Shown: positions 2 through 18,653, counted from the stretch's first letter. The stretch: DNA of 64,000 nt from Candidatus Woesearchaeota archaeon (GCA_046543095.1 JBKHAC010000002.1:2525-66524); one strand, 5' to 3'. Numbers and translations are program-made. The notes: a model not told the origin generated them from the sequence alone.

Positions 2-364
2 ACAGACTACTTGACAATAACAGAATTAGAAAATTCCTTCGATATACCAACAGATGCAGCAGACAGCATACAAAACACATTCAACCAATTCACACATCCA
101 ACAATTTATCCCGCATCATCAACAATACCTGAGAACACTTGTCACTCAACACAACTATACCAAAACGAAATACCTGGAACTGATTTTCCTGAATTGTTAC
201 TTTATGCAGATGATTCCAATTCAGTAATATTCACATCAATAATTCCCGGAAGTACAACAGGTTTCGACGGATCACTTATGGACTTCCAATTACTAGTCCC
301 TGCAAACGGAAGATTAGGACAAACAACACCAACAACATATTATTTATATGTTGAATTAGAATAA
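2..364 (+). CDS. C-terminal part of a secreted paralog-family protein. The reading frame is open to the window start, so the gene is truncated at the 5' edge.
   Basis: Ends TTYYLYVELE. Shares the FTSIIPGSTTGFDGSLMDFQLL motif with the CDS at 4523, 5377 and 8037. Confidence 0.5.
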   Translation, partial: TDYLTITELENSFDIPTDAADSIQNTFNQFTHPTIYPASSTIPENTCHSTQLYQNEIPGTDFPELLLYADDSNSVIFTSIIPGSTTGFDGSLMDFQLLVPANGRLGQTTPTTYYLYVELE

Positions 365-393
365 CTGACGAATTAGAAATGAATACTTTCTTC

Positions 394-538
394 GGCTCTG
401 TCCCAAATAACAATGAAGTGTATACTGCGCAAACCGAACAATGTTCACTAGATTTTAAATCCGAGTCCATAAAAACCAATGTTTATTTTGAGTGGTTTGC
501 TCGGCAGTATACAAAAAACAACTATTTTGGACAAAGCC
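394..538 (+). repeat. Family-1 hairpin repeat (MITE-like)
   Basis: Near-identical to 31529..31673. Terminal inverted arms GGCTCTGTCCCAAATA / TATTTTGGACAAAGCC plus TGTATACTGCGCAAACC / GGTTTGCTCGGCAGTATACA. Confidence 0.85.
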
Positions 539-593
539 CTTTCTTCAAAAACTTTAAAAACATACAAGATATTATTTTTTTAAAGGAGAGGGT

Positions 594-2399
594 TTGATGA
601 ATTTAAAAAACCAAATAATTATGCTAATTTTATTTGTAATAATAATTACAACAATAGCTATAGCCCTGAACATAAATTTAACAAATCCTACAAATCTATC
701 AACAATTAATGAAACACAAATAATATTTACATATTCAATAGATACAATAGCAGATAATTGCACATTATATACAAATGAGACAACATGGAGTGCCAAAGAT
801 ACCAAAACAAATACGCAAATAGGCGAGAACAATTTCACACAAACAATTAATACAGAAGGTAAATATTTGTGGAACGTTCAATGCACAAATTCAACAAATA
901 CATTCTGGGCAATAAATAATAATACATTCACATTAGATTTAAATGCCCCCACAATTACACTAATAAATCCCGAAAATAATTTTAAAACAACAGAAAATGA
1001 AATAGAATTTGAATATTACGTATCAGATATAGGAGGCGTAAATTCTTGTGCACTCATCATAGATTCACAAATAAACCAAACATCAAACACCATAACAAAT
1101 AATGCAAATAATTATTTTACAGCAAATCTTAAAACAGGACAATATGCATGGGCAATACGATGCACAGACACATTTTTACAAGAGCAAACAACAAATACAA
1201 GAAATGTAGAAATAGACTCAAAACTCGAATGGAACACAACAAATCTAAATTTAGGAGACGCGCCCTCAAATAATGAGGAGATAACAAAACTTACAGAACT
1301 TCGCGCAATAAATGAAAATAACCAAATAACGCTAACTTGCACAGGCAACTGCGCCGAAATAACACACGGATTTATAACTCAAAGTGCAGAAAATACCGAT
1401 ATATTTATAGAATTTGCCTGCTCATCAAATACCCCAAATAATTATACAGCGACATTTAATGCAACATCAAATGAACATGTTGAAGGAACTTTATTAACTG
1501 TTGAATGTGAAATATTTCAAGCAAGACCTGATTTGATGTTAAATAATAGTCTTATTTATTACGAGGGAGAGTTAGTCGAAGGACAAGAAATAATATTAAA
1601 AGCAGATGTTATGAATACAGGTGACGTCAATGCGAATAATGTCAACACATCATTTTTCTTAAAAAACGAATTAATAGGATATGAAATAAAAAATGTAGAT
1701 GCAGACACAAATATAACATTTCAAACCACATACGAAGTAGGTGTTGGTGATGTGTCAATAGATGTAAAAACTGATAATCAAAATAAAATATCAGAATATT
1801 TAGAAGATAATAATAATGCTACATTAAATATTAGTGTCGGTTCATGGCAAAAACTTACAGGAAACATATCAGGAAGATTTGTATTACAAGACGCGAGCAA
1901 CAACACCGTTTTTTTATGGGAAAAAGAATTACTTGACGAAAGCAATTTATTCGTAGTAGACGCAGACAGCTCAATAAACTGGAATGAATTAATTGCACTC
2001 ACAAAAGACACAAACAATAATACAAGAATGCAAGACCTAGAAATAGCGGATCAACTACTCAACACAACATCAAATTCGGATTCCATGAATAAAACATTCG
2101 CAGAAAATTTCCAAACAACAACATTTAATGTATTCGGACAAGAAATAAACCATGTACCAATATTTTACACAACGCCAGGCGAATTCAAAACAGGAATACT
2201 ATGGGATACAACTAGAGATACCAACGGATATTACGACTCTGCAGATAGAGAAGATTTAGTTTTTATAACACAAATAAAACAAGAAACACTAACGGATATA
2301 GGCATATTCGATTATGAAATAGAATTCGTCGCATCACTTAGAGAATATGCACAAGAACAAACACAAAACAGAGTATCAATATATGTAGAATTAAAATAA
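594..2399 (+). CDS. Asn/Thr-rich cell-surface protein with an N-terminal TM/signal, two ~100-aa Cys-containing repeats and a CARDB-like domain
   Basis: N-terminal hydrophobic segment. The GKYLWNVQCTNSTNTF and GQYAWAIRCTDTF motifs recur about 100 aa apart. A CARDB-like segment (PDLMLNNSLIYYEGELVEGQEIILKADVMNTGDVNANNV) follows. SD AAAGGAGAGGG lies upstream. Confidence 0.6.
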   Translation: MMNLKNQIIMLILFVIIITTIAIALNINLTNPTNLSTINETQIIFTYSIDTIADNCTLYTNETTWSAKDTKTNTQIGENNFTQTINTEGKYLWNVQCTNSTNTFWAINNNTFTLDLNAPTITLINPENNFKTTENEIEFEYYVSDIGGVNSCALIIDSQINQTSNTITNNANNYFTANLKTGQYAWAIRCTDTFLQEQTTNTRNVEIDSKLEWNTTNLNLGDAPSNNEEITKLTELRAINENNQITLTCTGNCAEITHGFITQSAENTDIFIEFACSSNTPNNYTATFNATSNEHVEGTLLTVECEIFQARPDLMLNNSLIYYEGELVEGQEIILKADVMNTGDVNANNVNTSFFLKNELIGYEIKNVDADTNITFQTTYEVGVGDVSIDVKTDNQNKISEYLEDNNNATLNISVGSWQKLTGNISGRFVLQDASNNTVFLWEKELLDESNLFVVDADSSINWNELIALTKDTNNNTRMQDLEIADQLLNTTSNSDSMNKTFAENFQTTTFNVFGQEINHVPIFYTTPGEFKTGILWDTTRDTNGYYDSADREDLVFITQIKQETLTDIGIFDYEIEFVASLREYAQEQTQNRVSIYVELK

Positions 2400-2480: not shown

Positions 2481-3479
2481 CTAATCGTCTTTATTTTTCT
2501 CATCATCAGCTTTCACTTCACCAGATGAAATTTTAGTATCTTTGTTTGAATTATCAGGTTCATCAGATTTCTTTAAATCACTAAGCTGACCCTCAATTTT
2601 CCTAATCTGATCATTCAAATAACCTTGCATATTCAAACCCTTAGCAAACAAAGGATTATCATCCATCAATTTACGAAACGCCTCAGATAACATTTCAGCC
2701 TTATTTAATTTCAAATCAAATTCAAGCTGCAACTCACGCTTTGCATGCTTCAAATTAACATCTAATTTGGAATAACTATCAGATGCCAATTTAATAACTC
2801 TTTTAGCTTTCTCAATATCTTTAGAAAACCCAGTTATACTATCAGATAACTCTTTTTTAGTTACAAGAGCAGGATTTCTCGCTTCAAGCTTAGATAATTT
2901 ACTATTAATTTCTTTAATTTCTAAACCAAAATCATCAAGCTTAATCTCAAACTCATTAAACTCCTTAAACGTTTTCTGCACCTCAATAAACATAGTCTCA
3001 ATTTTATCAGCATGCTGCTCACATACAGCCTCAATTTTCTTCACAGTCATAATTTCGCGCTTTACTTCCTCATTTAATTTAAGAATCTGCTCAGCCCCAC
3101 GAAAAACCTCAATTTGAGCACGGACCTGCTTCAATTGCTCAAATAAAGCCTTCATCATCTCCTCATTACTCTCAATATTCGACCTTAACGCCTCAATTTT
3201 ACCATCAGACTTTTGCAAATCAATAGTTATCTTATCAGGCTTCACACTCTCAACAATATCAACAGCCTTAATAGCTTTAACTTCAATCCCAGAAACATTA
3301 CGATTCATATCATTTAACATACCACGAAGCTCACCTAATTGCTCAGTTAAATTACTGGAACGCTCACTTTCAGCCTTATTCATCTCAGTTAAAGACTCAA
3401 TTTTAGATTTTAAAATAGCAATATCCGCAGTTAACGCAGCATACTCTTTAGTCTCATTTACCTTAGGCTCTTCTTTCAC
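2481..3479 (-). CDS. Coiled-coil (E/K/L-rich) protein with an acidic C-terminal tail; function unknown
   Basis: Long ORF with heptad-like E/K/L periodicity throughout. Confidence 0.5.
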   Translation of the reverse strand: MKEEPKVNETKEYAALTADIAILKSKIESLTEMNKAESERSSNLTEQLGELRGMLNDMNRNVSGIEVKAIKAVDIVESVKPDKITIDLQKSDGKIEALRSNIESNEEMMKALFEQLKQVRAQIEVFRGAEQILKLNEEVKREIMTVKKIEAVCEQHADKIETMFIEVQKTFKEFNEFEIKLDDFGLEIKEINSKLSKLEARNPALVTKKELSDSITGFSKDIEKAKRVIKLASDSYSKLDVNLKHAKRELQLEFDLKLNKAEMLSEAFRKLMDDNPLFAKGLNMQGYLNDQIRKIEGQLSDLKKSDEPDNSNKDTKISSGEVKADDEKNKDD

Positions 3480-4522: not shown

Positions 4523-5359
4523 GTGAATCATTTGAAGAAAAAAATAACAATGCTTTTGATGACATTCATATTATTGTTTGGAGCATATTCAGTACTAGCA
4601 CAAACAACAGTTCCAGAAGCACCATCAACATTTACTGAGGAAGGCTCATCAAGACGAGACTCTGGTTTGTTGCCTGACCGCTCAATAGAAGCTATAGCAG
4701 GAAATATAACCGCACTAAATATGCACGGTAACACAGTTACAAGAACCTGGTTCGGTGTATATGGTAACGTAACAGGAACACTCGTTTTGAGCAATGGAGA
4801 AAACGATGTGATGTATGATTGGTCAGTTGCAAATCCTCGCGGACAAGTATATGCTACAAGAGCGCCTGAATTATCAGAAACAATTCTATGGAATCAAGTT
4901 GATTGCTATAACTACACAATAACTGACTTGGCAAATTATTATACAATCTCAGAATTAAACGCTGATCTTGGAATTAACCCAACACTAGATCAAGATGCAG
5001 TAAACAGAACATTTAGATACGCGGTTCCAGATCCCGTGGAACCATTGATACAACCGCCTGTGGCTCATTACCATAATGGCTTTTTTGTTGGAACAAAGGA
5101 AATTTTAGAAAATACTTGTCCTGCAACATCACTTTATAGCTCAGGTGCAAATCAAAATTGGGATAGATATCAGCAAGTATTATTATATAATGCAGGAGTT
5201 ACAGGAAATTCTAGCCTAATATATACATCAATAATTGAAGATGGTGAAGTCACAGGCTTTGATGGAACAGATATGGACTTTCAAATGTTACTCGGAGAAA
5301 ATGGTCATGATGGTGACACAGATACAACAACATATTATTTTTATGTAGAACTTGAATAG
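4523..5359 (+). CDS. Secreted paralog-family protein (Sec signal peptide, C-terminal TTYYFYVELE). The more likely start is the TTG at 4532 (MKKKITMLLM...).
   Basis: Signal peptide ...FGAYSVLA/QTT. SD CGAGGTG upstream. Conserved blocks shared with 5377, 8037 and 2..364. Confidence 0.6.
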   Translation: MNHLKKKITMLLMTFILLFGAYSVLAQTTVPEAPSTFTEEGSSRRDSGLLPDRSIEAIAGNITALNMHGNTVTRTWFGVYGNVTGTLVLSNGENDVMYDWSVANPRGQVYATRAPELSETILWNQVDCYNYTITDLANYYTISELNADLGINPTLDQDAVNRTFRYAVPDPVEPLIQPPVAHYHNGFFVGTKEILENTCPATSLYSSGANQNWDRYQQVLLYNAGVTGNSSLIYTSIIEDGEVTGFDGTDMDFQMLLGENGHDGDTDTTTYYFYVELE

Positions 5360-5376
5360 ACGAGGTGTTAAGAAAA

Positions 5377-6219
5377 ATGAAATCATTAAAATTAAGCTTA
5401 TTTTTAATAAGTATGCTATTTTTAGCAACAGCTACAAGCGCGTTTGTGGCAGTATCCGGATTTGACCCAACATACGAGGGTAATTTCTCAGATAGTGCTA
5501 ACCAACCAACAGTTATGACGCACGAGAGAGGATTTATACATGTAGTAAACATAGATAAATCACAACAAACTCCAAGATGGAAAGCATATGTCGGAAACAT
5601 CACAGGCGAACTAGCGCTAGGAGATGGAACATACTCTATTTTCAATTGGAATTTAACTACAATAACAGGTGAAATATACGCAACAAGATATAACGGAACA
5701 TTCGCATCATCCCCTCCAAATTTATCCGAGGAGTGGCCACAAGGTGATTCTAGTAACACATTACCAATATGGTCAACGATGGAATGCGCAACACAAGACG
5801 AAATAAATAATGAAACAACATTATTAAATCATAATTATGATTTAGATGTAGATGCACTTAACAGAACCTTCACAACAGGATTTACATTTCAAAACTTCGC
5901 AGTCGCAAGTAGAACTATAGATACATCAACTTGCAGAGGCACTTTTTTAAATTACAACGCAACAAATGATAACTCCGAGCAAGGCGTAGCAGGCTGGCAA
6001 CAAGTAGTACTAACAGATAGAGGAGATGGAATATCATCAGGAGCTGATTATGCACCTGACCTTATGTATGCAGCATTACTAAAAGACAGCGGACTAGGAT
6101 TTAACGGTGAAGTGTATGATTATCAAATCCTTTTACCAGAAAACGGGGATTTATCTGAGCAAAACCCTGACCCAATTCCCTACTACTTTTACATGGAATT
6201 ACTAGGTAGCGTGAACTGA
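5377..6219 (+). CDS. Secreted paralog-family protein, tandem to the CDS at 4523. The ORF track begins at the GTG at 5365; the ATG at 5377 has better SD spacing.
   Basis: Signal peptide MKSLKLSLFLISMLFLATATSA. Motifs HVVNIDKSQ, W.AYVGNITGEL.LGDG, IYATRYNG and C-terminal PYYFYMEL. Confidence 0.6.
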   Translation: MKSLKLSLFLISMLFLATATSAFVAVSGFDPTYEGNFSDSANQPTVMTHERGFIHVVNIDKSQQTPRWKAYVGNITGELALGDGTYSIFNWNLTTITGEIYATRYNGTFASSPPNLSEEWPQGDSSNTLPIWSTMECATQDEINNETTLLNHNYDLDVDALNRTFTTGFTFQNFAVASRTIDTSTCRGTFLNYNATNDNSEQGVAGWQQVVLTDRGDGISSGADYAPDLMYAALLKDSGLGFNGEVYDYQILLPENGDLSEQNPDPIPYYFYMELLGSVN

Positions 6220-6297
6220 AAACTTTTTTTCTTTTATTTTTTCTTTTATTTTTATCAATAAAGATTTTCTATAAGTATAAATGACTTAATTAGTTTA

Positions 6298-6396
6298 AAT
6301 TACGAGCGGAAGAATCCTCGCTTTTTAGCGTTAGCTAAAAAGTTAACTGAAGGTTAACCCTTTAGGGAGGGGAAGCGCCCTCTAACTTTTTCAATT
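6298..6396 (+). repeat. Family-3 hairpin-rich repeat (short form)
   Basis: GAGCGGAAGAATCCTCGC, TTTTTAGCgttaGCTAAAAA, GTTAACCgaagGTTAACC and AGGGagggGAAGCGCCCT stems. Longer copies at 39181 and 42906. Confidence 0.8.
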
Positions 6397-6722
6397 TAAA
6401 TTTATAATAAAATAATAAATCACACTATTAAACTAAACATGAATTAAGATAATAACTTAATTTATCTATATTATTTCTTAATGCTTTCAATTAATCAACT
6501 AATACTTTAAAATAACGACTTTTTCAAATTAAACACACCTTGAAAAAATTCAATAAAAACTAATGCACATATAAAAAATTTTAAAATAACAAATGCAATC
6601 AAATTTAAACATACTAAAAAAGTTCAGAAAAAGCATTAATTTAATTAATCTAATTTTGAATCTGAAATTAAACATCTCCAACAAAGGTTTATAATTTGAA
6701 ATATAAGATAAAAAAAACTAAT

Positions 6723-7718
6723 TTAAGAATTTAAAATTCTAAGCAAATCATCTTTAGATCTAGCTTCTCTGAGCTTATTTGCTAACTCATTATTGTGAAA
6801 AACATGATCAACCCAATTCGCAAAATCATTACGATGATCATTTACATGATGATAAAAAACCGCATCACTCATACTCTTAAGCTTTTCTTTAAGTTCACGA
6901 ATACTTGAAATAGTTTCACCATTTGATAGATTAAAATGCTTATTTTCATCAAGTTTATCTTCAACAAAATCAGACATCAATTTTTTTAATTCAGAAAGCT
7001 CACTTTTCAATTTACTCTCGCTTGTATCAACTTCTTTTTGAAGCAATTTAAGCTCACTTTTTTTAGTATGCCACATGTTTTCAAGAACTTTTAAAGATTC
7101 AATTTTACTATGTATTATTTGATTTAATTCATCATGATGAATGATGAAAGGGGTGCCACTATCTTCATTATCGTGAAAATCATTCAATGTATCGAATAAA
7201 TCTTTCTCAATTAAAGATTTCAATTTATTCTTTTTCTTTAAATCATCATCATTATCTTTATCAAGCAAAACTTGAAGTCTGGAGAAAAAACTATGATTAT
7301 CAACAGAGGGGGTGCTAGGTGTTAGACTTGGCTTATCATGAGTTGTTACTGCACTTGATTGAGATTGAGGTGTTTGCGCTGGCACGTTAGTTTGTTGACT
7401 TGCGGGTTCTGTTTTAGGCGCTTGCTGCAAGGGTTGTTTTACTGCTTCTTGTTCTTGCGGTTTTTGAACCGGTTCTTGAGCTTGAGGCGTTTGAGTAGAT
7501 ACATTGGTTTGTTGGCTTGCAGGCTCTGGATTAGGTGCTTGCTGCACTGGTTGCTCTACAGGTGATTCTTTTGCAGATTCAGGCTTGTTTAAACTAGGCA
7601 GACTATCAGGCACAGCAGTGACGCTAGGTGCGGGCTCTTCTTGATGTGGAAGTGCAGGTAAATGCTCGGGCACAGATTTACTTTCTGATTTTTTAGAACC
7701 TAATTTAAGTAATACCAA
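6723..7718 (-). CDS. Pro/Gln-rich low-complexity protein with a conserved C-terminal DFANWVDHV domain, paralogous to the C-terminus of the CDS at 10551
   Basis: C-terminal VFYHHVNDHRNDFANWVDHVFHNNELANKLR parallels FTKHVTEEKDDFANWIDHVLGLADIAQKLR in the 10551 protein. Contains an internal ~126-bp tandem DNA repeat encoding QQAP..EPASQQTNV.(T/A)QTPQ.Q. Confidence 0.55.
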   Translation of the reverse strand: MVLLKLGSKKSESKSVPEHLPALPHQEEPAPSVTAVPDSLPSLNKPESAKESPVEQPVQQAPNPEPASQQTNVSTQTPQAQEPVQKPQEQEAVKQPLQQAPKTEPASQQTNVPAQTPQSQSSAVTTHDKPSLTPSTPSVDNHSFFSRLQVLLDKDNDDDLKKKNKLKSLIEKDLFDTLNDFHDNEDSGTPFIIHHDELNQIIHSKIESLKVLENMWHTKKSELKLLQKEVDTSESKLKSELSELKKLMSDFVEDKLDENKHFNLSNGETISSIRELKEKLKSMSDAVFYHHVNDHRNDFANWVDHVFHNNELANKLREARSKDDLLRILNS

Positions 7719-7894
7719 TTAACAACCCACCTCTAAATATTTTTGGTCACTATTTATTTATAAATATGTCGATTTTTTCAACTTTATTTTCATTTTTTTT
7801 TCAAACTATTTAAACTATTTATTAAATTATTTTTACTTTCATGATTTATTTTCTGAATTTTATTTATTTCTTTGAATTGTTTATGTTATATGAA

Positions 7895-8028
7895 GTATAT
7901 TCGCAGTAGCGCTTTATATGACGCATAAAGATTAAAAAACTATTTGAAAATTATTTGAAATTTACTTTTAAAGCTCGAAAATTTATAATTCTCACATGTA
8001 ATTAAACTTGTTTGATTTTTCTCGTTTA
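7895..8028. repeat. Family-7 element ending in the palindrome AATTAAACTTGTTTGATT plus a T-run, located 3' of the gene at 8037
   Basis: Shares TATATTCGC(A/G)GTAGCGCTTTATATG ... CTATTTGAAAAT ... AATCAAACTTGTTTGATTTTTCTCGTTTA with 62052, 41393 and 53234. Confidence 0.7.
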
Positions 8029-8036
8029 TTTCAAAT

Positions 8037-8762
8037 TTAAATTAATTCAATATAAAAATAATATTCTTCACTCACACTCAAATTCTGATTTTCAGGCAAT
8101 ATTAACTGAAAATCATAAGTGTTATTATTAAAACCAATAGCACCATTTTGCAAGACACTCGAAAAAATTAAATTTGAATTATTATCTGATAAAATAACTT
8201 CTTCAAAATCCCTTGATGATGTGTTGTTATAAACATTTAACGCCGCAGATTTGCAAGAATCGGTTTCAATATAATTAAAAAAAGTGTAAAATGATTCGTG
8301 TTCGCTATCGCTAAATGTTCTATTAACTGAGTACTCAATTGAGGGCTCAAAACCAAGATAACTATCTTCTAAAATAATTTCAGAATTATTCGCGCATCTA
8401 ATATTATTCCAATCTAATGTGTTGCTTCGAGACGCATAAATTTTACCGCGTGTATTGTCCATTATCCAATCAAATAAACTAGTAGAACCATCTCCTAATT
8501 TAAGCCTGCCCGAAATATTACCAACATAACCTCTCCAAAACGGATTAGGCTGAGATGCCTCAATGTTTACTACATGAATATGTCCTCCGCTACTAATAAG
8601 CTCAACTCCCGGCTCGAGAGGAATAGAATAATTATCAACATACGTTATGTTTCCACCAGATGGATAAAAAGGAGAAGAGAACACATTATTAGATAAAACT
8701 AATATTGATGAAAAAAATAAAAGTGCAAAAATTAATTTCACTAAACTATTTGATTTTATCAT
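8037..8762 (-). CDS. Secreted paralog-family protein (fourth member)
   Basis: Signal peptide. Motifs HIHVVNIEASQ, W.GYVGNISGRL.LGDG, IYASRSN and C-terminal EYYFYIELI. Confidence 0.6.
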   Translation of the reverse strand: MIKSNSLVKLIFALLFFSSILVLSNNVFSSPFYPSGGNITYVDNYSIPLEPGVELISSGGHIHVVNIEASQPNPFWRGYVGNISGRLKLGDGSTSLFDWIMDNTRGKIYASRSNTLDWNNIRCANNSEIILEDSYLGFEPSIEYSVNRTFSDSEHESFYTFFNYIETDSCKSAALNVYNNTSSRDFEEVILSDNNSNLIFSSVLQNGAIGFNNNTYDFQLILPENQNLSVSEEYYFYIELI

Positions 8763-9133
8763 TTAAAATCCCTCCGCTTAGTAAAAGTAATCCAAATCGT
8801 CTGATAAGACCTTGAGAGAATCTTAGAAATATCATTAATGCTTAGAAGTTTATCTTGATATAAGTACAAAATAATATTTCCAAGAATATTGCCTTCTTTG
8901 TGTATTGCACTTAAAGGAATTTTAATTTTATGATTTTTTTTAAACTGCTTAGGATGCTTTTTTTTCGCTTTACTATACGTAATAGAGATAGTAGATTTAT
9001 CCCTTCTTGTTAAGGACGCAATTTTAGTTATGGTAAAAGACTTATTTTCTTTTAAATATTTAACCACGCTCTCAAAACAACCAAGCTCTTTTTTAAAAAT
9101 AGATACAGGGATTAAAGTTTCTTGTTCGAGCAT
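8759..9133 (-). CDS. Small HTH DNA-binding protein, translationally coupled (4-nt overlap) to the secreted-family gene at 8037
   Basis: Predicted HTH segments FTITKIASLTRRDKSTISI and LSINDISKILSRSYQTIWI. Its stop overlaps the 8762 start (ATGA). Confidence 0.45.
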   Translation of the reverse strand: MLEQETLIPVSIFKKELGCFESVVKYLKENKSFTITKIASLTRRDKSTISITYSKAKKKHPKQFKKNHKIKIPLSAIHKEGNILGNIILYLYQDKLLSINDISKILSRSYQTIWITFTKRRDFK

Positions 9134-9849: not shown

Positions 9850-10440
9850 ATGTTCAAACAAAAAAAAGCAGTTATGGGCGTAGGAATGCTACTAATATTT
9901 GTAGCGAGTATAGTCTCAGCAGCAATAGCTGCAGCACTACTTATAACATCAACAAATTTACTACAAGATAGAGCAGCTAAAGTACAACAAGACGCAACAG
10001 AAGGACTTATTAGTGGACTTGATGTAGTTTCAATATATGCAACAGGAAATATGACAACAGAGATAATATACGAATTTGAATTCATCACAAGGCTTAGAGC
10101 AGGATCAAGACCTGCACAACTAGACTCCTTAGGCCTTACATTTATACAAGGTGAAAACACAGCAACAGGATACATGAACACATCACTTATAGGCGATAAC
10201 TGCACATTTGAAAATCTTCAAGCTGAAACAGAATTTTGCGTGAATAAAATATTCGGCGATGAAAACACAGTACTTGAAAGTGGCGATATGGCAATTATAA
10301 AATACAAATTATCCAACGAATCCGCACTACCAACAGACACTCCCTTCGATATAATATTCCAACTTAGAGTCGGCTCACCTTTAATTATGGCCTTGCAAAC
10401 GCCTGATATGGTACTTAGCAGTAAGATAAGACTTAGATAA
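9850..10440 (+). CDS. flaB: Archaellin (FlaB-family) with a class III signal peptide
   Basis: N-terminus KKAVMG/VGMLLIFVASIVSAAIAAALLI followed by the archaellin-type conserved block LQDRAAKVQQDATEGLISGLDVVSIYATG. Confidence 0.75.
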   Translation: MFKQKKAVMGVGMLLIFVASIVSAAIAAALLITSTNLLQDRAAKVQQDATEGLISGLDVVSIYATGNMTTEIIYEFEFITRLRAGSRPAQLDSLGLTFIQGENTATGYMNTSLIGDNCTFENLQAETEFCVNKIFGDENTVLESGDMAIIKYKLSNESALPTDTPFDIIFQLRVGSPLIMALQTPDMVLSSKIRLR

Positions 10441-10550
10441 ATATAAACTTAATTTACTAAATAGTTTAATGAACGATTTAAAGAATAACAAACTAATATT
10501 TTAATTATTTTTAATAAAATAAAAAAAACAAAAAAAAGAGGCAAATAGTA

Positions 10551-11786
10551 TTGGGACTACTATCATTTTTAAAGAAAAAACCTAAAGAAGAAAAAAAAGA
10601 AGGGGATAACACGAATCAACTGATTGAAGATAGTTCTAAAACTCAAAATACAACACTCAAACCAGAAGAGACTAATTCTATAAGTGCAAACACGGAAAAT
10701 AATACTCAAAGTACCCAAAGTGTTCAAAATAAAGATGAACAAAATAATCAAAATACTCAAGAAGATGACTCCAACGAAGATTTCGACAAACTCGTCACAC
10801 AAATAATAACAAAACTTGAAGATATGAAAACAGGCGCAGACACAAAACTAGAAGAACTCGAGACAAAAATACAAGAACTAAACAACACAAACAAAAAAGA
10901 AGAACTAGATGCAATAAAAGAAAAAGTTGAGAAACTAGAAAACAGCCTAAAAGAATTCTCATCAATATATGAGGCAATAAGCTCACAATACAACCCACTC
11001 TTAGACGGATTCGACGAGAGAGATAAAAAACAAAACCTAAACAAAGAAGAAAAACAACAAGAAACTGCGCGAAGCATAGATGCGTCAGAAATTCAACAAT
11101 CGCCTGAAATTGAACAGAAAAACGTTACTGAACAAATAAAAGAACAAAATACGGAAATGACACAGAGCCTAAACAAACAAAATGAAGAACAACAAGTTCA
11201 AGAAGCTCAGCAAACCCAACAAGCTCAACAGTCCCAAGAAATAATCACACAAACACAAGAACACACAAAAGAACAAATACAAGAAAAGGTACAAGAAAAG
11301 GCACAAGAACAAATAGAAGAAAAGGTACAAGATAGCACCTCACAAACACAAGAAACAAATTCAGATTATAATTTAAAATACACAATATCAACACAATCAG
11401 ATCTCGACGATGACAATAACACAGAACAAATACTAGTATCAAGACACGAGAATAAAAACCAAAGCGCAGATAGAGAATCAATACTAAAGAAAAAAATAAT
11501 AGAATACATGCTTAAAGAAAAAAGAATACACTTAGAGAGATTATCAAGAACAGTAGACGGCGATAAAAAATTCTTTTTAGATAATAATAAAGCAATAGCA
11601 AATTTAATTGATTTAGTAAATATAATAAAAGACGACGAACAATCATTCACAAAACACGTAACAGAAGAAAAAGATGATTTTGCAAACTGGATAGACCACG
11701 TACTCGGACTTGCAGATATCGCACAAAAACTTCGAGGAATAAAAAACAGAGAAGAATACACGCTAACACTTCTATCTGAAATATGA
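10551..11786 (+). CDS. Gln/Glu-rich coiled-coil protein with a conserved C-terminal DFANWIDHV domain; immediately downstream of an archaellin gene
   Basis: Low-complexity N-terminus with a Q/E coiled coil. The C-terminus shares a ~40-aa domain with the CDS at 6723. Confidence 0.55.
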   Translation: MGLLSFLKKKPKEEKKEGDNTNQLIEDSSKTQNTTLKPEETNSISANTENNTQSTQSVQNKDEQNNQNTQEDDSNEDFDKLVTQIITKLEDMKTGADTKLEELETKIQELNNTNKKEELDAIKEKVEKLENSLKEFSSIYEAISSQYNPLLDGFDERDKKQNLNKEEKQQETARSIDASEIQQSPEIEQKNVTEQIKEQNTEMTQSLNKQNEEQQVQEAQQTQQAQQSQEIITQTQEHTKEQIQEKVQEKAQEQIEEKVQDSTSQTQETNSDYNLKYTISTQSDLDDDNNTEQILVSRHENKNQSADRESILKKKIIEYMLKEKRIHLERLSRTVDGDKKFFLDNNKAIANLIDLVNIIKDDEQSFTKHVTEEKDDFANWIDHVLGLADIAQKLRGIKNREEYTLTLLSEI

Positions 11787-12000
11787 ATTAAGTTAATAAC
11801 TAAACAAACAATTAAATTAATGATAAAACTAATAATTATGAAAATAAATTTTCTAAACTTCTTTAAATAATTAATAAGTGCGGACACAATTTAATAATCT
11901 ATTTTTATATTAATTGAAAAAATAACAAAATTAAATTAAAAGTATGATGGGGCGCCATATTGATGATTAAAGTCTAATAAGAAATATTGAATGCACGAAA

Positions 12001-12813
12001 TCAAGATTTATAATTATTTTTTAAATATGCGGCGACGCTTGGAAATAAATGTGTACTTCTATTATTCAATTGAATGGTAAGATTAGGATTGTCATTAAAA
12101 TTAGTTTTTAAACTGCCAGAATACTGTGAATTCGCCTGTAATTCTTTAAGCATTATACCTTCAAGAAGTAGATTCTTTAAAAAAATATGAGAAATTAAAG
12201 GCTTTAAACCTGATTCTTGTCGCTCCATAAAATCAGGCAAATTATTTGCTTCTTCTTTTTCAATATGTGATTGTCTATTTAAACCAGTATTTTCAAAATC
12301 AATTATTGTGTCTTTTGTGTATAATTTAAATCCTTCATTTTTAAGAGAAGCCGTATTTCTTACATACTCTTTATATATTTTTAAATCTATATCTAAATTT
12401 TTTAAATCTTCAATATTGCTTTTATTAGGTATGGTTGCTATATATATGTGGTCTAATTCACACTTGAGTTTATTTTCATCATGATTATAATGTGAAAAAA
12501 TCATAATGTCTTTTTTATCACCATCAAAAAAGGATAATTTACTCGAATAAAACGGCAGGACGCGTTCTTCTTTACTTCTTATAGCTTCAATAGTTAATGT
12601 TGCTTTTGCAGTTTTATCTTTTAAGAAGTCATTGTATGCATTTAAAGAAATATTTTGTTTAAAATAATTATTAATGGAGTTGGTGTTCAAATCGTTTTCA
12701 ATTATGTCAATAGGTGACTTAATCATACTTAGACATAATCCTCCAGCTAGTAGGGTTGTTTTTAGTAGAAAATCTCTTCTCGACATTTCTTTACTTGAGC
12801 TCGTCATAAGCAC
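12001..12813 (-). CDS. Tat-secreted protein of unknown function
   Basis: Twin-arginine motif SRRDFLLKTTLLAGGLCLS at the N-terminus. Confidence 0.5.
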   Translation of the reverse strand: MLMTSSSKEMSRRDFLLKTTLLAGGLCLSMIKSPIDIIENDLNTNSINNYFKQNISLNAYNDFLKDKTAKATLTIEAIRSKEERVLPFYSSKLSFFDGDKKDIMIFSHYNHDENKLKCELDHIYIATIPNKSNIEDLKNLDIDLKIYKEYVRNTASLKNEGFKLYTKDTIIDFENTGLNRQSHIEKEEANNLPDFMERQESGLKPLISHIFLKNLLLEGIMLKELQANSQYSGSLKTNFNDNPNLTIQLNNRSTHLFPSVAAYLKNNYKS

Positions 12814-12891
12814 TAGAAAAACAACAAAACTATATAAATGTTTCTATTTAGTAGTGACGAAATAATTCTTTTTGATTTTTTTGAAGTAACT

Positions 12892-14568
12892 CTACCAAAT
12901 CGTACTCATATCAGGAAGAACCATATCAACAACAGAAGGAATAGTCCAATAAAGCAAAGCAATAATCCAAATCATAATAATTAAATTAATGATGGATGAA
13001 TAATTAGACCCACCATCAATAATCTTCAAAATCCACGAAGACGTAAAAGCATGAATTATAAGCATAACCATAATAAGAACAAGAGCCACACCAAAATTAA
13101 TCTCCTGATTCATAGGCATAATAGTCTGCGCAAAATCAACAGTCATCTCATCATCAATATTCGTCGTAGAAAAAAGCTGAGACATCTTCTCAGAAATCCT
13201 AAACGTAATAAAAATAGTTAAAGACACACCAATAGTAATACCATAAAAAACACCAGTGAGACCCTGCGCGAGCTGAGCCCTAAGCTTCCTTAAAGAAAGC
13301 AAATGCTGAACATTATTACTAACAATCTCACCAATCTTTTCAGCATTACCACCAAGATAAATAGACTCAGAGAAAATCTTACTAAAATTATTAACCAAGT
13401 TACTACCAGAATCAACCGCGTAATGATACCAAGACTTAAACTTATCAGTACCAAGCCTCAAACGCCTATAAAGATTAACACTCATATCATTAATAACACC
13501 AAAATCATGCATCTGAGTAGATTTTAAAGACGAAATAACGCCCCCATTACGAACCTCAATAGCAGACCCCAAAATCCTCGCATAAACAGGAAACTGAACA
13601 TCACGCTTACGCACAATCTCTTCCTCACGAACAGCAAGAAACCCAGGATATAAAAGCGGAAGCGAACCTAAAGCCATAACAGTAATAAACGATAAAGAAG
13701 TCAAAAATAATAAACCAACAAAAAAAACACCACTAATAATCACAGCAAATTTAAACGCCTGCTCAATTTTTAACTGACCTAAACTTTTATGCGCCAAATC
13801 ATGAAAAATTTGATCACGAGGAATAAAACCTTTCACTGCAAAAATAATCACAACATCCATAACAACTAAACCAACCAAAGCATAAATGAGCAAAACATTA
13901 ACAGGCAAAGCAATTAACAAAGGCGCAAGCAAAATAGTACTCACAAGAAACGCAAAAGAAACCGAGAGCGCCATAAACAATTCTTGAATCATCTTAATAA
14001 TCTCAAGAGATTTTTTATATTCAACAGAATAATCATCAAGCACAGCACCCTGCTCATCATACAAAAAAGTATCAAGCTCCTCACCAAAATCCATGACAAC
14101 AGCGAACCTATCAAGAAAATCACCAAGAATACGAGAAGGAGTCCTCGAACCCATCAAACGACAAGAATTAACAAAACCCATATTCCAATCTTTAGACAAA
14201 TAAATAACCTTCTCAAACGTCTTACTAATCTCACCAAAAACCTTTTTCTCAGCAATCTTCTTAAATAACGCATGACGAGAAATCTTCATAGTCGCAATAG
14301 TACCTGCATAAGTAATAAAAAAATGCAAATTCTCATTAATATTTTGTTTAACAGCAGAATACTTAATTAAAGGATAACCTATAAGTCCACCCATAGTTAA
14401 TAAAATTAAAAAAATACTAAACACAAAACCAACAGGAACAATAAAAGGAATAATTAAAGAAATTAAAACAACACTACTCAAAATAGGCAAAACTAACTTC
14501 AACAAATAATCATTCAAATTCGAATAACCCACAAGTAAAATTACTTTATCAATTTTTTTAGTATTCAT
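12892..14568 (-). CDS. flaJ: Archaellum assembly membrane protein FlaJ (TadC/GspF-like)
   Basis: Polytopic membrane protein of 558 aa immediately downstream of flaI. Typical FlaJ N-terminal TM pair and cytoplasmic domains. Confidence 0.8.
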   Translation of the reverse strand: MNTKKIDKVILLVGYSNLNDYLLKLVLPILSSVVLISLIIPFIVPVGFVFSIFLILLTMGGLIGYPLIKYSAVKQNINENLHFFITYAGTIATMKISRHALFKKIAEKKVFGEISKTFEKVIYLSKDWNMGFVNSCRLMGSRTPSRILGDFLDRFAVVMDFGEELDTFLYDEQGAVLDDYSVEYKKSLEIIKMIQELFMALSVSFAFLVSTILLAPLLIALPVNVLLIYALVGLVVMDVVIIFAVKGFIPRDQIFHDLAHKSLGQLKIEQAFKFAVIISGVFFVGLLFLTSLSFITVMALGSLPLLYPGFLAVREEEIVRKRDVQFPVYARILGSAIEVRNGGVISSLKSTQMHDFGVINDMSVNLYRRLRLGTDKFKSWYHYAVDSGSNLVNNFSKIFSESIYLGGNAEKIGEIVSNNVQHLLSLRKLRAQLAQGLTGVFYGITIGVSLTIFITFRISEKMSQLFSTTNIDDEMTVDFAQTIMPMNQEINFGVALVLIMVMLIIHAFTSSWILKIIDGGSNYSSIINLIIMIWIIALLYWTIPSVVDMVLPDMSTIW

Positions 14569-14608
14569 AAAAAACCTAACTCTCTAATTTAAAAAACCCA
14601 CCTAAAAT

Positions 14609-16255
14609 TTATAATTTAAACGGCAATGTTGCCTCACCACCATGATAATAATTACGAAGAATAGACCAAACATCATAATAATTAAAAATCTTCTCCTCAA
14701 CCATACGCTTTAAAATCTTAGTACGCTTATCCAATTCAGCATAAATCTCACGAGGATCTTTAAGCCCAAGAGTCTTCGCAATTTTCTGCTCAAGAATATA
14801 ACTATTAAAAAGACCCCTAAAAATTAATTTATCATTAACACTATTCCACGTAAAAACCTCACGCGTAATAACTTTATTTGCAGGAGCATAATAACGCTCA
14901 AGCTCACTTAAAGATAAAACACGACGAACAAATTTATTACCACGATAAACAGCTTGCTGAATCAAACACAAATTCAAGTTATCAATAAAAGCAATAGGAA
15001 CATTAATAGGATCACCCGTCAAACGCTGAATCATAGTATTAACATCACCAGCGTGAAAAGTAGATATAACAGGATGCCCAGTCTGCATCGCCTGAAACGC
15101 AATAGCACCCTCCTCACCACGAATCTCACCCACAATAATATAATTAGGACGACTACGAAGAGCAGCAATAAGCAAATCCAAATAACCAACATCAGACTCC
15201 TTACCAGCCTCACGAGTAACCAAATGCTGCCAAATATCATGAGGCATAGTAACCTCGGGAGTATTCTCAACAGTAAACACCTTCGCAGTAGGCTTAATAA
15301 AAGCAGCACACGCATTAAGCGTAGTCGTTTTACCAGACGCAGTTTCTCCACAAACAAACAAATTCATACCATTTTCAAGCGAGAGCCAAATGTACGCTGC
15401 AAGATCAGCACTAAGAGTATTCCAATTAATAATCTGAGTAATAGAGACAGGAACATCAGAAAACTTACGAATAGTAAAACTAGAACCCTCAAGACTAATC
15501 TCACGACCAAAAATAAAATTCGCACGAGAACCATCAGGCATAATCGCATCAACAACAGGATGACGATCACTAGTTGGACGCTCAACACGCTCAGTAGTAT
15601 CAATAACATACTTATCAAGCTCCTTATCTGACTTAAACTCAATAGTTGTATAAATCATACCAAACACTTTATGAATAGACGTTACAACACCAACACCAGT
15701 ACAATGAATATCCTCCAAATTAGGATCACGCAAAAGAGGCTCAAGCTTACCATAACCAACACGATTCCTAACCAAGAAATATTTAATTTTCTCATATTGC
15801 AAAGACGTAAGCCTAGTTTTAGATGAAATACTAAACAAACCCTTACTCGAACTAGCACCACCAGACTCAGAAACTTCAACAACGTCATCAAGAAGCTTCA
15901 ACAAAACAGGACCAATTTCAGTAACTTTATCAGGCACAGGCTCTTTATACGCAATATCAATTAAACGCTCAACACACTCATCATAAAGCTTCTGCTCATC
16001 ATCAGTTAAAAACGGCTCAATTACGGTATAAATGGTGTCTTCAGCCGGCTTCTTTCTCAAATGAATAAAAATAGGATCACCAACAGGATAAATAAGATTA
16101 GGAAAATCCATCTTACCCATATCACGAGTAAGCGCAGGCACAAAAGTAGGCATATCCTCTTTAGAAAAACCCTCAACATACAACCTAAGATGCTCAAACT
16201 TCTTTTTAGCCTCTTCAAAATCCTTAGTAATTTCAACTTCCTTTTTCATTTTCAA
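14609..16255 (-). CDS. flaI: Archaellum ATPase FlaI (type II/IV secretion ATPase family)
   Basis: Walker A VCGETASGKTTTLNA, Walker B/Asp box and His box. 548 aa. Confidence 0.9.
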   Translation of the reverse strand: MKMKKEVEITKDFEEAKKKFEHLRLYVEGFSKEDMPTFVPALTRDMGKMDFPNLIYPVGDPIFIHLRKKPAEDTIYTVIEPFLTDDEQKLYDECVERLIDIAYKEPVPDKVTEIGPVLLKLLDDVVEVSESGGASSSKGLFSISSKTRLTSLQYEKIKYFLVRNRVGYGKLEPLLRDPNLEDIHCTGVGVVTSIHKVFGMIYTTIEFKSDKELDKYVIDTTERVERPTSDRHPVVDAIMPDGSRANFIFGREISLEGSSFTIRKFSDVPVSITQIINWNTLSADLAAYIWLSLENGMNLFVCGETASGKTTTLNACAAFIKPTAKVFTVENTPEVTMPHDIWQHLVTREAGKESDVGYLDLLIAALRSRPNYIIVGEIRGEEGAIAFQAMQTGHPVISTFHAGDVNTMIQRLTGDPINVPIAFIDNLNLCLIQQAVYRGNKFVRRVLSLSELERYYAPANKVITREVFTWNSVNDKLIFRGLFNSYILEQKIAKTLGLKDPREIYAELDKRTKILKRMVEEKIFNYYDVWSILRNYYHGGEATLPFKL

Positions 16256-16944
16256 CCAGATAAATCCACAACAATACCAATACCCGCGCGAACCTTAAAC
16301 GGCAACTCACGCTCAACATCATTAATCGCACCAAGAAACCGCTTCACCTGCAAAATATTCAAAATATTACCATACTGCTCACGCTCAAACATAACAAGAT
16401 GAACCTCAACAGTATTTTGCAAATATTTCAAAATCTCTCTATTAATAATTTCAGGCTCTACACAAAAAATAACAGTCTTACCCGAACTTGTAAGCTTTTT
16501 AAAAGCACTAATGAACTCAAAAGTCTCACTTAAATTAGACTCATTTTTCAAAACAAAATCATTAAGCGCATCAATAACAATAACCTCAGATTCCAATAAT
16601 TTTTTAGATAAAAAAATCTTCTTAATCATATCAGGCTCAAAATTAACACGACCAAGCAAAGGAAAAGTCGTAATAAATTTTAACTGACCTGCAAGAAACT
16701 CTTTACGAATATCATACTTTAAAGAATCCATTTGAGAGAGAAAACTTTGAACAGAGAGCTCAGAGCTAACATAAGAAATACTAACATTATTTTTAATCGC
16801 GCCATAAACAAAACGCTGAGCCAAAATAGACTTACCAAGACCAGCCGGACCCTCAATTAAAACAAGACTATTCTTAGGAATGCCCCCGCCAAGTTTTAAA
16901 TGAAGCTCATCACCCTCAAGCTCAATACTATAAATTTTATCCAA
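16252..16944 (-). CDS. flaH: Archaellum protein FlaH (RecA/KaiC-like ATPase)
   Basis: Walker A EGPAGLGKSILAQRF. 230 aa. 4-nt overlap with the flaI start. Confidence 0.8.
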   Translation of the reverse strand: MDKIYSIELEGDELHLKLGGGIPKNSLVLIEGPAGLGKSILAQRFVYGAIKNNVSISYVSSELSVQSFLSQMDSLKYDIRKEFLAGQLKFITTFPLLGRVNFEPDMIKKIFLSKKLLESEVIVIDALNDFVLKNESNLSETFEFISAFKKLTSSGKTVIFCVEPEIINREILKYLQNTVEVHLVMFEREQYGNILNILQVKRFLGAINDVERELPFKVRAGIGIVVDLSG

Positions 16945-17018
16945 TCTCTCCCCTCTTTTTTAAAAAATGTTTATTATAATAAAATAAATATTAATTAATT
17001 ATGATTTTTATATTAATT

Positions 17019-17477
17019 TTAAGTCGTGACAATTACACTATCGCCAACACCATTAGGTGCAACTATTCTCGCTTGATTTTTTGTGGAACTTACAAAAAAA
17101 TCAGGGACAACAACTAAAATAACTTCGCTAGGATCCCACGAAGTAGGATTACCAACACTAGTGTCAGATTCAACCGAAATCGAAAAATCATCACGCGAAA
17201 TACGCTGATTAGATAAAAAAACCTCAACTCTATCAAGCATTAAAAGCGTCTTACCAGTATTCGCTGCAGTAATCGTCGTCGTGTTCGTTTCGTTATCAAA
17301 AAAAGCAGAGGTAATAGATATGTCCGTTCTAAGCTCATCACTCAAACGATCTTTTTGAACAGCCATCGCAGCAGTAGTCTCACTAGCAAAATTACTCATA
17401 TAAAAAATAACACTAGCAGATATAGTCACAATCGCGATAAAAAACAACATGTTTGCTGCAACAGTTCCAAAACCCAT
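17019..17477 (-). CDS. flaG: Archaellum FlaG/FlaF-like protein (N-terminal TM plus beta domain)
   Basis: Position upstream of flaH. N-terminal hydrophobic helix MLFFIAIVTISASVIFY. About 150 aa. Confidence 0.55.
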   Translation of the reverse strand: MGFGTVAANMLFFIAIVTISASVIFYMSNFASETTAAMAVQKDRLSDELRTDISITSAFFDNETNTTTITAANTGKTLLMLDRVEVFLSNQRISRDDFSISVESDTSVGNPTSWDPSEVILVVVPDFFVSSTKNQARIVAPNGVGDSVIVTT

Positions 17478-17852
17478 ACTTTATAACCCCTCTTTTTTAA
17501 TAAAAAATAATCATCACTCAACAAATATAAATGTTTCTATCTTTATAAGTATTTGCCTTTAAAAAAAGACAGAGATAAAACTATTTAGAAAAATAGATGC
17601 GTAAATTAATGCGCAAAAAATAAAAGATAATTTAACAGATTTAAAACTAAACAAACAAAATAAAAAAGCCAAAGAAACAAATAAAAAAACATAAACTGAA
17701 ACTAACTTTGAAAATTAAAATAAAATTTATTGATGTACTTCTTATCGTCTAAAATTACCTCTAAACGGATTTGATGGAAAAGTTTATATATTAAATTAAT
17801 TATTTTTTGTTTAAACCCACGGGGGGTTTGCTTAAAAAAAGAGGTAGTAATA

Positions 17853-18437
17853 ATGAAAAATTATAATAAAAAAGCAGAAGTAGCTATGGGCACGCTAATC
17901 ATATTTATCGCAATGATACTGATTGCAGCAGTCGCAGCAGCTGTTTTAATTTCATCAATAGGAAGTATTCAATCTAAAGCACTAGAGACTGGGTCTGCAA
18001 CAAGACAAGAAATAGGAACAAATGTAAATGTGGTCGAAATATACGGACCGAAAGATACAAATGAATCAACAATAACAAACATAAGCATGGTTGTACGCCT
18101 CGCAGCAGGATCAGACCCAATTAGACTTAGTGATTTACTTCTAACTATTGGCGCTGAGAATTTCACAAACGAATTCACATATAATTCAACAGACCATAAT
18201 AAAGGAGGAACTGCTGGCGCATCATTTAACGTATCATACCTTCTTGAAGGAAATAACAACCAACCTGATTATCTAGTTAAAGGAGACGTTGCAAGATTCG
18301 ATTTAGAACTTGAATATGCAGTAGGAGAAGATGCGAGTTTAAGATTTACACTTATACCAAAAATAGGAACTCCCGCAATAGTGTTTGCAACAACACCTAA
18401 TGCAATAGCAAATTCAAGAGAAACTATTTTCCCATAA
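17853..18437 (+). CDS. flaB: Archaellin (FlaB-family), tandem copy 1
   Basis: KKAEVAMG/TLIIFIAMILIAAVAAAVLISS class III signal/archaellin N-terminus. Divergent from flaGHIJ. Confidence 0.85.
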   Translation: MKNYNKKAEVAMGTLIIFIAMILIAAVAAAVLISSIGSIQSKALETGSATRQEIGTNVNVVEIYGPKDTNESTITNISMVVRLAAGSDPIRLSDLLLTIGAENFTNEFTYNSTDHNKGGTAGASFNVSYLLEGNNNQPDYLVKGDVARFDLELEYAVGEDASLRFTLIPKIGTPAIVFATTPNAIANSRETIFP

Positions 18438-18653
18438 GTTTTCGATATGAACAGAGGCGCATCTTTTTTTCTTTTTTTATCTATATTTTAATCATCCAAA
18501 AAATAACAAAAAAAGCGTTATTAGTATAGATTTTAGGCTACTTAGCGCTATTTTTTAATCAAAAAATGGAAAGATTTATATACTACTACAATAAAGTATT
18601 CTGTATGCCCCTATCTCAGGGCTTAGATTTAATTAAAAAAGAGGTAGATAAAT

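Follow-up and report, generated by a model that had tools for sequence, protein, structure and literature searches.

FAM, a family of secreted proteins and their shared domain of ~215 residues, is present in five copies in a stretch of 64,000 nucleotides from Candidatus Woesearchaeota archaeon (GCA_046543095.1 JBKHAC010000002.1:2525-66524; this whole stretch is called the window), and it is a large, lineage-specific family that matches no characterised family. It serves both as stand-alone sets of small proteins belonging to two subfamilies, alpha and beta, and, in giant adhesin-like proteins, as the obligatory C-terminal part, and the present analysis defines a lineage-wide locus of ~10 genes around this domain without detectable relatives. 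Tentatively, and with somewhat less than even confidence, we read FAM as the self-associating assembly or docking module of a multi-subunit cell-surface structure. Woesearchaeota (DPANN) rank among the most widely distributed archaea that have not been cultured and are believed to rely on other cells, and to our knowledge nothing is known about their cell surface or attachment. The locus provides concrete candidates for a surface or attachment structure of these archaea, and FAM provides a new domain for family databases.

The FAM family and its copies in the window

The region has a G+C content of ~31%. The FAM copies, the CARDB protein that contains one of them and the helix-turn-helix (HTH) gene coupled to another are listed below (aa, amino acids).

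2..364 (+): FAM copy 1, alpha; the 3' 120 codons of a gene that leaves the left end of the window; C-terminus TTYYLYVELE
594..2399 (+): CARDB protein, 601 aa, a secreted surface protein with signal peptide, Ig-like regions, CARDB at aa 312-410 and a C-terminal divergent FAM
1839..2399 (+): divergent FAM domain, aa 416-601 of the CARDB protein (C-terminal ~185 residues); ends ...RVSIYVELK
4523..5359 (+): FAM copy 2, alpha; first of the tandem pair; NCBI start 4532; ends TTYYFYVELE; profile E 3.5e-72
5377..6219 (+): FAM copy 3, second of the tandem pair, divergent subtype; ends YYFYMELLGSVN; profile E 2.1e-75
8037..8762 (-): FAM copy 4, beta, HTHa-linked single; ends EEYYFYIELI; profile E 2.9e-76
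8759..9133 (-): HTHa, 124 aa, two HTH repeats; its stop overlaps the start of FAM copy 4 (ATGA)

A preliminary description, made from the sequence alone, listed four secreted paralogous open reading frames (ORFs) with shared blocks, and all four exist. They align over their full length with 31-43% identity, contain the conserved blocks and the C-terminal YY(F/L)Y(V/M/I)EL, and have export features by a rule of thumb. The description did not state that the 8037 copy lies on the minus strand, and it overlooked the fifth, divergent copy in the CARDB protein. The family profile (62 members) detected the three complete copies with E values from 1e-72 to 1e-76 and the partial copy 1 with 1e-32 (hmmsearch E 1.7e-32, profile positions 125-241); the latter is intact in another assembly of the same genome, where it encodes 248 aa with a signal peptide (L082 2142-2888). 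Copy 2 is 100% identical to P0001, a hypothetical protein of a Ca. Woesearchaeota metagenome-assembled genome (MAG). The divergent domain was aligned with the family by hhalign with a probability of 96% (E 3.3e-9, 160 columns) and by hmmsearch with a domain E of 2e-11; it keeps W..GNISG..L.D....W, NKTF and DYEI, and both Cys are lost. CARDB (PF07705) is a separate domain of the same protein (Pfam E 7.7e-10, 39.3 bits vs a gathering score of 22.7), and the FAM domains themselves have no CARDB match.

The tandem arrangement of 4523 and 5377 and the coupling of 8037 to a small HTH gene, both proposed previously, are borne out. The tandem genes are 17 nucleotides (nt) apart and the spacer contains a GAGGTG ribosome-binding site, and therefore the second gene does start at 5377. 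At the HTHa junction, the ATGA overlap is accompanied by GGAGG located 8 nt upstream. Copy 3 has five residues beyond the motif (an LLGSVN-type end), in which ~90% of the family differs from it; the ending LLG(D/A/S)xN is common to copy 3 and its relatives P0003, P0004 and P0006-P0008.

A word-seeded search gave 352 relatives, all unnamed and none with a Pfam domain, and when 1.84 billion cluster representatives (50% identity) were searched exhaustively with the profile, 1510 clusters reached E <= 1e-3 and 1053 reached E <= 1e-10. The preliminary description had not recognised the family, and this judgement holds: Pfam has no match at E <= 1 for any of the 62 alignment members, NCBIfam and PHROGs have none, the profile found one chance match only (E 1.2) among all PDB sequences, and Foldseek gave no significant match. 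Nothing relevant was found in the searched literature on the family, Woesearchaeal surface structures and DUF5752.

FAM is restricted to Woesearchaeota/Nanoarchaeota-type MAGs. In a species-level genome collection, 207 stretches encode FAM relatives, and the 77 loci kept from these come from MAGs labelled Woesearchaeota (45), Nanoarchaeota/Nanoarchaeia (9), unclassified archaeon (8) and "uncultured Methanosarcinales" (15); Pacearchaeota and "DPANN group" are further source names of relatives. The 15 "uncultured Methanosarcinales archaeon" MAGs, which are third-party records (L005, L007, L013, L021, L023, L025 and nine other loci), contain a typical Woesearchaeal FAM locus, and their label is probably an artefact because the synteny is the same as in Woesearchaeal loci. 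A viral origin was rejected, as IMG/VR viral contigs contain no FAM relatives.

Judged from sequence features, FAM is an exported, probably glycosylated and disulfide-bonded domain. Signal-peptide cleavage was assigned by a rule of thumb and not by a trained predictor. The four small ORFs each have a basic n-region, an uncharged stretch and small residues at -3 and -1 (SVLA-Q, TSA-F, VFS-S and SIA-Q, with the hyphen at the predicted cut). Among the small members, position -1, two residues ahead of a conserved Pro, is occupied by Ala in 71% and by Ala, Ser or Gly in 88%, position -3 is V, A, T, I or S, and the uncharged stretch before the predicted cleavage site has a median length of 18 residues. 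By this rule of thumb the N-terminus matches the classical signal-peptidase-I pattern, and the mature protein would start with x-P-x-G-P. A class III (archaellin-type) signal peptide finds no counterpart: FAM proteins have no PF01917 match, against E values of 1e-14 to 1e-26 for the true archaellins of the window, and the conserved small residues of FAM come after the hydrophobic stretch, unlike those of class III signal peptides, which come before it. The density of N-glycosylation sequons is ~4 per 100 aa in FAM vs 0.5-1.2 in the cytoplasmic proteins of the window, and two sequons fall within the most conserved motifs, GN[VI][TS]G and N-x-T-F; the CARDB protein has 22 sequons. Two Cys are invariant in FAM, and exactly two are present in 197 of 247 small members.

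The C-terminal strand and the position of the domain

The conserved C-terminal aromatic motif noticed in the preliminary description is the most conserved segment of FAM, with 3.1 bits per column vs 2.2 for the remaining core. In the form [Y][Y][F][Y/F/W][V/I/A][E][L/I] it closes 253 of the 264 retrieved proteins (96%), and exactly one residue follows it in 229 of the 253. It persists as [FI]Y[YV]E[LI]x in the highly divergent subclass of giant proteins that lost the Cys pair. Across 262 locus copies (82 sources), the domain ends 0-3 residues before the stop codon, three N-terminal cases excepted.

Structures of two copies have been modelled by AlphaFold2, with a predicted local distance difference test score (pLDDT) of 85.9 and a predicted template modelling score (pTM) of 0.77 for copy 4 (8037, beta), and a pLDDT of 81.5 and a pTM of 0.79 for copy 2 (4523, alpha). 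The topology is the same in both models and starts with the signal-peptide helix at the N-terminus, followed by ~45 residues that are poorly placed. A meander of four strands with the sequence W..Y.GN..G.L.L.D....YDW....GE.YA.R, two helices and seven more strands come next. The last of the seven strands is the C-terminal motif, and its pLDDT is 81-92 in both models. There is also a conserved N-terminal strand, G-G-x-I-T-x-x-L (profile columns 53-66; 2.1 bits per column vs 2.2 for the core), which is kept in fusion proteins; in both monomer models its region lacks secondary structure and is placed with a pLDDT of 55-68.

The preliminary description suggested that the motif could be an assembly or anchoring signal and proposed a sorting-signal test. 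As a stand-alone signal, YYFYVEL-x would be a short sorting or processing signal read by dedicated machinery, as in the PGF-CTERM/archaeosortase, LPXTG/sortase or bacterial outer-membrane beta-signal types, and its strict position at the protein end, its fixed one-residue tail and its retention in the most divergent subclass would be accounted for. The motif, however, is never separated from the 215-aa domain: of 7084 ORFs without a FAM domain in 1.1 Mb of related loci, none ends with the strict motif, and a relaxed motif ends 11 giant proteins only, all of which have the divergent domain (…FYYELK). Neither a transmembrane (TM) helix nor a basic tail follows the motif, and no sortase- or archaeosortase-like gene is present among the conserved neighbours. 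A detachable sorting tag was therefore rejected on the count of non-FAM ends, and we consider a dedicated signal of any of these types very unlikely. Since the motif is absent from the ends of non-FAM proteins and forms an integral beta-strand in the models, it belongs to the ~215-aa domain as its last strand and is not a detachable tag. The preliminary description had allowed for the motif being simply the last strand of a characterised fold; the last strand it is, and homology to a characterised fold was not found.

A weak N-terminal FAM-like domain (E ~1e-7) occurs in three large proteins of 640-1270 aa (L016 11771-13687, L017 1-3813 and L069 7462-11274). In these the last strand is internal and reads TYYFFPDP, V-E-L is lost, and other domains follow. 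The fold can therefore exist without V-E-L-x-COOH and the terminal form is not needed for folding, and for this reason the strict terminal form looks functional rather than merely structural.

The same position is kept when the domain is combined with other parts. Among the retrieved proteins, 17 are long (325-2359 aa), and FAM is at the extreme C-terminus in 17/17; save for a few 5'-truncated records, all have a hydrophobic segment at the N-terminus. Adhesin-like passengers are found in proteins of 600-2359 aa, and the passenger regions comprise right-handed beta-helix/NosD, Laminin_G_3, 3-keto-disaccharide-hydrolase-like, DUF2341 and Ig-like regions. Small proteins predominate in the family: 133 of the 150 best-scoring representatives have <= 300 aa, and those inspected are the domain alone. 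Natural tandem FAM-FAM fusions were not found among the retrieved proteins.

In 12 of the 17 long proteins, a motif F-x-V-x-[H/S/G]-F-S-x-Y-S is located 94-115 residues ahead of FAM. The region around F-x-V-x-H-F-S-x-Y-S matches the Nup98 autopeptidase S59 (PF04096) in three of the seven long proteins scanned, with 31.0 bits vs a gathering score of 28.4 for P0159, and the motif closes this domain and corresponds to the Nup98 self-cleavage position, with H replaced by S or G in some. The Nup98-like long fusions include P0159, P0191, P0202, P0214, P0215, P0262 and P0264, which come from other metagenomes and are not in the window. The sequence suggests that self-cleavage of these long fusions would free a C-terminal fragment bearing FAM.

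Subfamilies and the conserved locus

Hierarchical clustering of the small proteins separated an alpha subfamily (85 members), which comprises nearly all first-of-pair genes, and a beta subfamily (146 members), which comprises nearly all second-of-pair genes and the HTHa-linked singles. When a protein is compared with other genomes, its best match comes from the same positional class with few exceptions, namely in 62, 48, 31 and 23 cases in the four main classes. In the window, the partial copy and 4523 are alpha, the latter grouping with first-of-pair genes; 8037 is beta and groups with HTHa-linked and second-of-pair genes; and 5377 is a divergent second-of-pair subtype. Paralogues that are fixed in position and diverged so long ago point to non-redundant components of a single structure, and not to recently expanded variable adhesins.

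Neighbours have been counted in 79 non-redundant loci, many of which are short contigs, by neighbour clustering and profile searches. A related locus has 2-7 FAM copies, and the typical order is a giant protein with the divergent domain, a DUF5752-like coiled-coil protein, FAM-FAM, HTHa-FAM, HTHb-FAM-FAM, a secreted protein of ~315 aa, a secreted protein of ~230 aa and a membrane protein of ~550-590 aa. The conserved neighbours, with the number of loci and the median distance to the FAM gene, are as follows.

HTHa: 66/79 loci, 0 nt
Sec311: 47/79 loci, 4 nt
HTHb: 39/79 loci, 4 nt
DUF5752-type coiled-coil protein: 36/79 loci, 322 nt
TM550: 36/79 loci, 2212 nt
U236: 33/79 loci, 2484 nt
U589: 29/79 loci, 1032 nt
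Divergent giant protein (ends FYYELK; of the CARDB-protein kind), which opens the locus: 24/79 loci, 1836 nt
Homologues of 2481..3479, a minor conserved neighbour: 8/79 loci

The order in the window is a rearranged one, namely U589-like (just left of the window), alpha, CARDB/giant, coiled-coil, alpha-beta pair, DUF5752-type, and beta with HTHa. HTHa matches HTH_23 (E 7e-5) and HTH_38 (E 5e-4) in Pfam, both under the cut-off. HTHb, which is absent from the window, is a protein of ~205 aa with an ArsR-like HTH_5 and an unknown C-terminal half; it is located directly ahead of the second alpha-beta pair in 39/79 loci (L001 11038-11655, L003 750-1346 and 37 further loci).

Sec311 (~315 aa, secreted), U236 (~230 aa, secreted), TM550 and U589 have no Pfam match above threshold. 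Example coordinates of these unannotated families are L037 14733-15659, 16094-16765 and 16767-18401, L026 5978-7693, and L082 351-2087. TM550 combines a Cys-rich ectodomain with a Gly-rich linker, TM helices and a coiled coil in the cytoplasm. The N-terminus of U589 is weakly CWB2-like, and the protein also has a C-terminal TM helix and a tail with CxxC...CxxC.

These membrane-anchored proteins bear on the possibility that FAM is an envelope anchor, which would hold passengers on the cell's own membrane, surface layer (S-layer) or glycans, as SLH and CWB2 do in bacteria. The constant C-terminal position of FAM on diverse passengers and the presence of U589 and TM550 in the locus speak for such an anchor. 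Most of the best-scoring representatives, however, are small, and the inspected ones have nothing to anchor; a hydrophobic segment is already present at the N-terminus of the large proteins, and no similarity to known anchoring domains was found in Pfam. An anchor is thus quite improbable in our estimate.

The remaining genes of the region are as follows.

2481..3479 (-): coiled-coil protein, 332 aa, without signal peptide; weak coiled-coil Pfam matches
6723..7718 (-): DUF5752-type protein, 331 aa, cytoplasmic; Pro/Gln-rich region, coiled coil, DUF5752-like C-terminus
10551..11786 (+): second DUF5752-type coiled-coil protein, cytoplasmic; same family as 6723..7718
9850..10440 (+), 17019..17477 (-), 17853..18437 (+) and 18654..19226 (+): four archaellins, Pfam-supported
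12892..14568 (-): FlaJ-like
14609..16255 (-): FlaI-like
16252..16944 (-): FlaH/KaiC-like

The protein encoded by 6723..7718 matches Pfam DUF5752 with E 3e-5 (23.9 bits, cut-off 23), and that of 10551..11786 has a weak FlaC_arch match (E 7e-5) under the cut-off. The two share an M-x-L-L-x-(F/L)-x-K-K start and a DUF5752-like end (…DFANW(I/V)DHV…), and they would be intracellular partners of an extracellular gene set. A 72-codon ORF at 379..597 (+), between FAM copy 1 and the CARDB gene, has also been called in L082 (2903-3121). Between the FAM region and FlaJ, 12001..12813 (-) encodes 270 aa with a twin-arginine-like start (SRRDFLLKTTLLAGGLCLS).

An archaellum cluster (9850..19226 of the window) adjoins the FAM locus in this DPANN-type genome, and the preliminary description accordingly placed the family in a surface and motility neighbourhood. 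The CARDB protein named there is a true relative. An archaellum link as a conserved association was rejected, because archaellin, FlaI and FlaJ are present within 10 kb in 0 of the 78 other FAM loci; the motility neighbourhood is therefore a coincidence of this genome.

Proposed role and comparison with known systems

An assembly role for FAM is plausible. In the mechanism that we infer, FAM would be exported by Sec and cut by signal peptidase I just ahead of the conserved x-P-x-G-P, and the exported domain would carry N-glycans and one stabilising disulfide. The body of the structure would consist of the small alpha and beta proteins, as alpha-beta pairs and the beta single, and larger proteins with adhesin- or enzyme-like passengers, including the CARDB protein of the window, would join it via the same domain. 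The subunit interface would include the last strand, Y-Y-F-Y-V-E-L, which lies at a near-fixed distance from the free C-terminus, and the N-terminal strand G-G-x-I-T-x-x-L, unplaced in the monomer models, may also be part of it. HTHa and HTHb would be dedicated transcription regulators of the locus. The importance of a free C-terminal strand is a testable rule.

Several points weigh against a self-associating module. The last strand is confidently placed inside the monomer fold (pLDDT 81-92) and hence may be purely structural. For both models, Foldseek found no significant match in 350,542 PDB chains or BFVD (E >= 0.7), and no fold similarity to known filament subunits was seen, the CanA monomer 9dlo merely having E 1.1. 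Mean-field co-variation analysis of 534 sequences, aimed at the partner of the N-terminal strand, gave no usable contacts, as indel columns and the signal peptide dominated. Neither expression nor proteomic nor imaging data for Woesearchaeota were found in the searched literature. Invariant or near-invariant aromatic and polar residues of the family are W76, Y79, W99, Y109, R112, W118, D144, D193, D217, Q219 and E239, and the invariant polar ones (R112, D144, D193, D217, Q219 and E239), together with the many aromatics, fit a ligand-binding site equally well.

This last point leads to a glycan- or ligand-binding domain (lectin-like, or like a carbohydrate-binding module, CBM), in which the small proteins would be lectins and the large proteins would use the C-terminal head for host or substrate recognition, without a polymer. 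Aromatic and polar residues such as these are typical of sugar-binding sites, FAM would be distal in fusions with an N-terminal anchor or signal, and the lineage is thought to be host-dependent. The non-significant top Foldseek matches (E 0.7-4) are mostly jelly-rolls, i.e., polyomavirus VP1, bromovirus coats, adenovirus fibre knobs and CanA, and they include receptor-binding ones (polyomavirus VP1, adenovirus fibre knobs and reovirus sigma1); we take the jelly-roll matches as a lead, not as evidence. Binding modules, however, normally do not need a position one residue from the C-terminus, which 229 of 253 motif-bearing proteins have. In addition, at least five ancient paralogues in fixed syntenic positions, with alpha-beta pairs, are more like parts of one structure than interchangeable lectins, and there is no significant match to a lectin or CBM family by sequence or fold. 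We consider this explanation unlikely; if FAM were a lectin-type head only, the present result would still annotate >1500 protein clusters that are now "hypothetical".

The invariant D217 and E239 could also belong to an extracellular enzyme, for example a glycosidase or peptidase. Against this, no enzyme family or fold is matched, the divergent copy of giant proteins keeps the strand pattern with many polar positions changed, and five differentiated paralogues per genome would be unusual for one activity; an enzyme is scarcely credible on these grounds.

A bolder form of the assembly reading, which we hold to be rather doubtful as a whole, is that alpha and beta polymerise, possibly by C-terminal strand exchange, into a new filament or lattice of Woesearchaeales. 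The giant proteins would plug into this, some after cutting themselves between F and S of the Nup98-like H-F-S, and with the membrane and coiled-coil partners the whole would be the host-attachment apparatus of episymbionts.

Among known systems, archaeal donor-strand filaments such as the Saci_0406 thread of Sulfolobus, the CanA/CanX cannulae of Pyrodictium and AbpA/AbpX bundling pili have small beta-rich subunits of ~20-28 kDa with Sec/signal-peptidase-I export and heavy N-glycosylation. Their paralogues are located side by side with no secretion ATPase in the locus (PMC9715654; bioRxiv 10.1101/2024.12.30.630787). FAM resembles such TasA-superfamily filaments in its small beta-rich subunits, signal-peptidase-I-type signal (by the rule of thumb), sequons and adjacent paralogues in a locus that lacks a secretion ATPase, and its conserved N-terminal strand would fit a TasA-type donor strand. 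It differs in that PF12389 is absent from 62/62 members (E <= 1), the PDB sequence search gave no real match, and comparison with 7PNB, 7UEG, 8AUR and 9DLO by Foldseek gave no significant fold match. Helices, a disulfide, a strictly terminal motif, alpha/beta subfamilies and embedded HTH genes are features of FAM that have not been described for TasA-type filaments, and FAM is restricted to Woesearchaeota-type archaea, unlike those filaments.

In chaperone-usher pili (FimA/PapA and FimH/PapG), as with FAM, small subunits are accompanied by larger proteins in which the subunit domain is C-terminal behind a functional N-terminal part, and the aromatic-rich last strand is conserved. In Pap and Fim, the C-terminal carboxylate matters for chaperone binding. 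No Pfam match to chaperone or usher genes was found in representatives of the conserved FAM neighbours, there is no outer membrane, and FAM belongs to archaea and has no Ig-fold match; the resemblance is one of logic only. FAM has been filed under neither donor-strand nor chaperone-usher systems, because the tested family, fold and chaperone features were absent or gave no significant match.

The obligatory C-terminal position on diverse passengers, including a beta-helix, is shared with PGF-CTERM, the C-terminal domain (CTD) of the type IX secretion system (T9SS) and the autotransporter beta-domain, and many FAM fusions have an autoproteolytic-type domain upstream, as can be compared with C-terminal sorting systems. 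Unlike PGF-CTERM and LPXTG, FAM ends with E-L-x and has neither a TM helix nor a basic tail; unlike the T9SS CTD, most members are the domain alone, and Pfam, including families of the Por_Secre_tail type, gives no match. In the models, FAM is a soluble globular domain, predicted to be glycosylated and disulfide-bonded, and not a membrane barrel or a cleaved tag.

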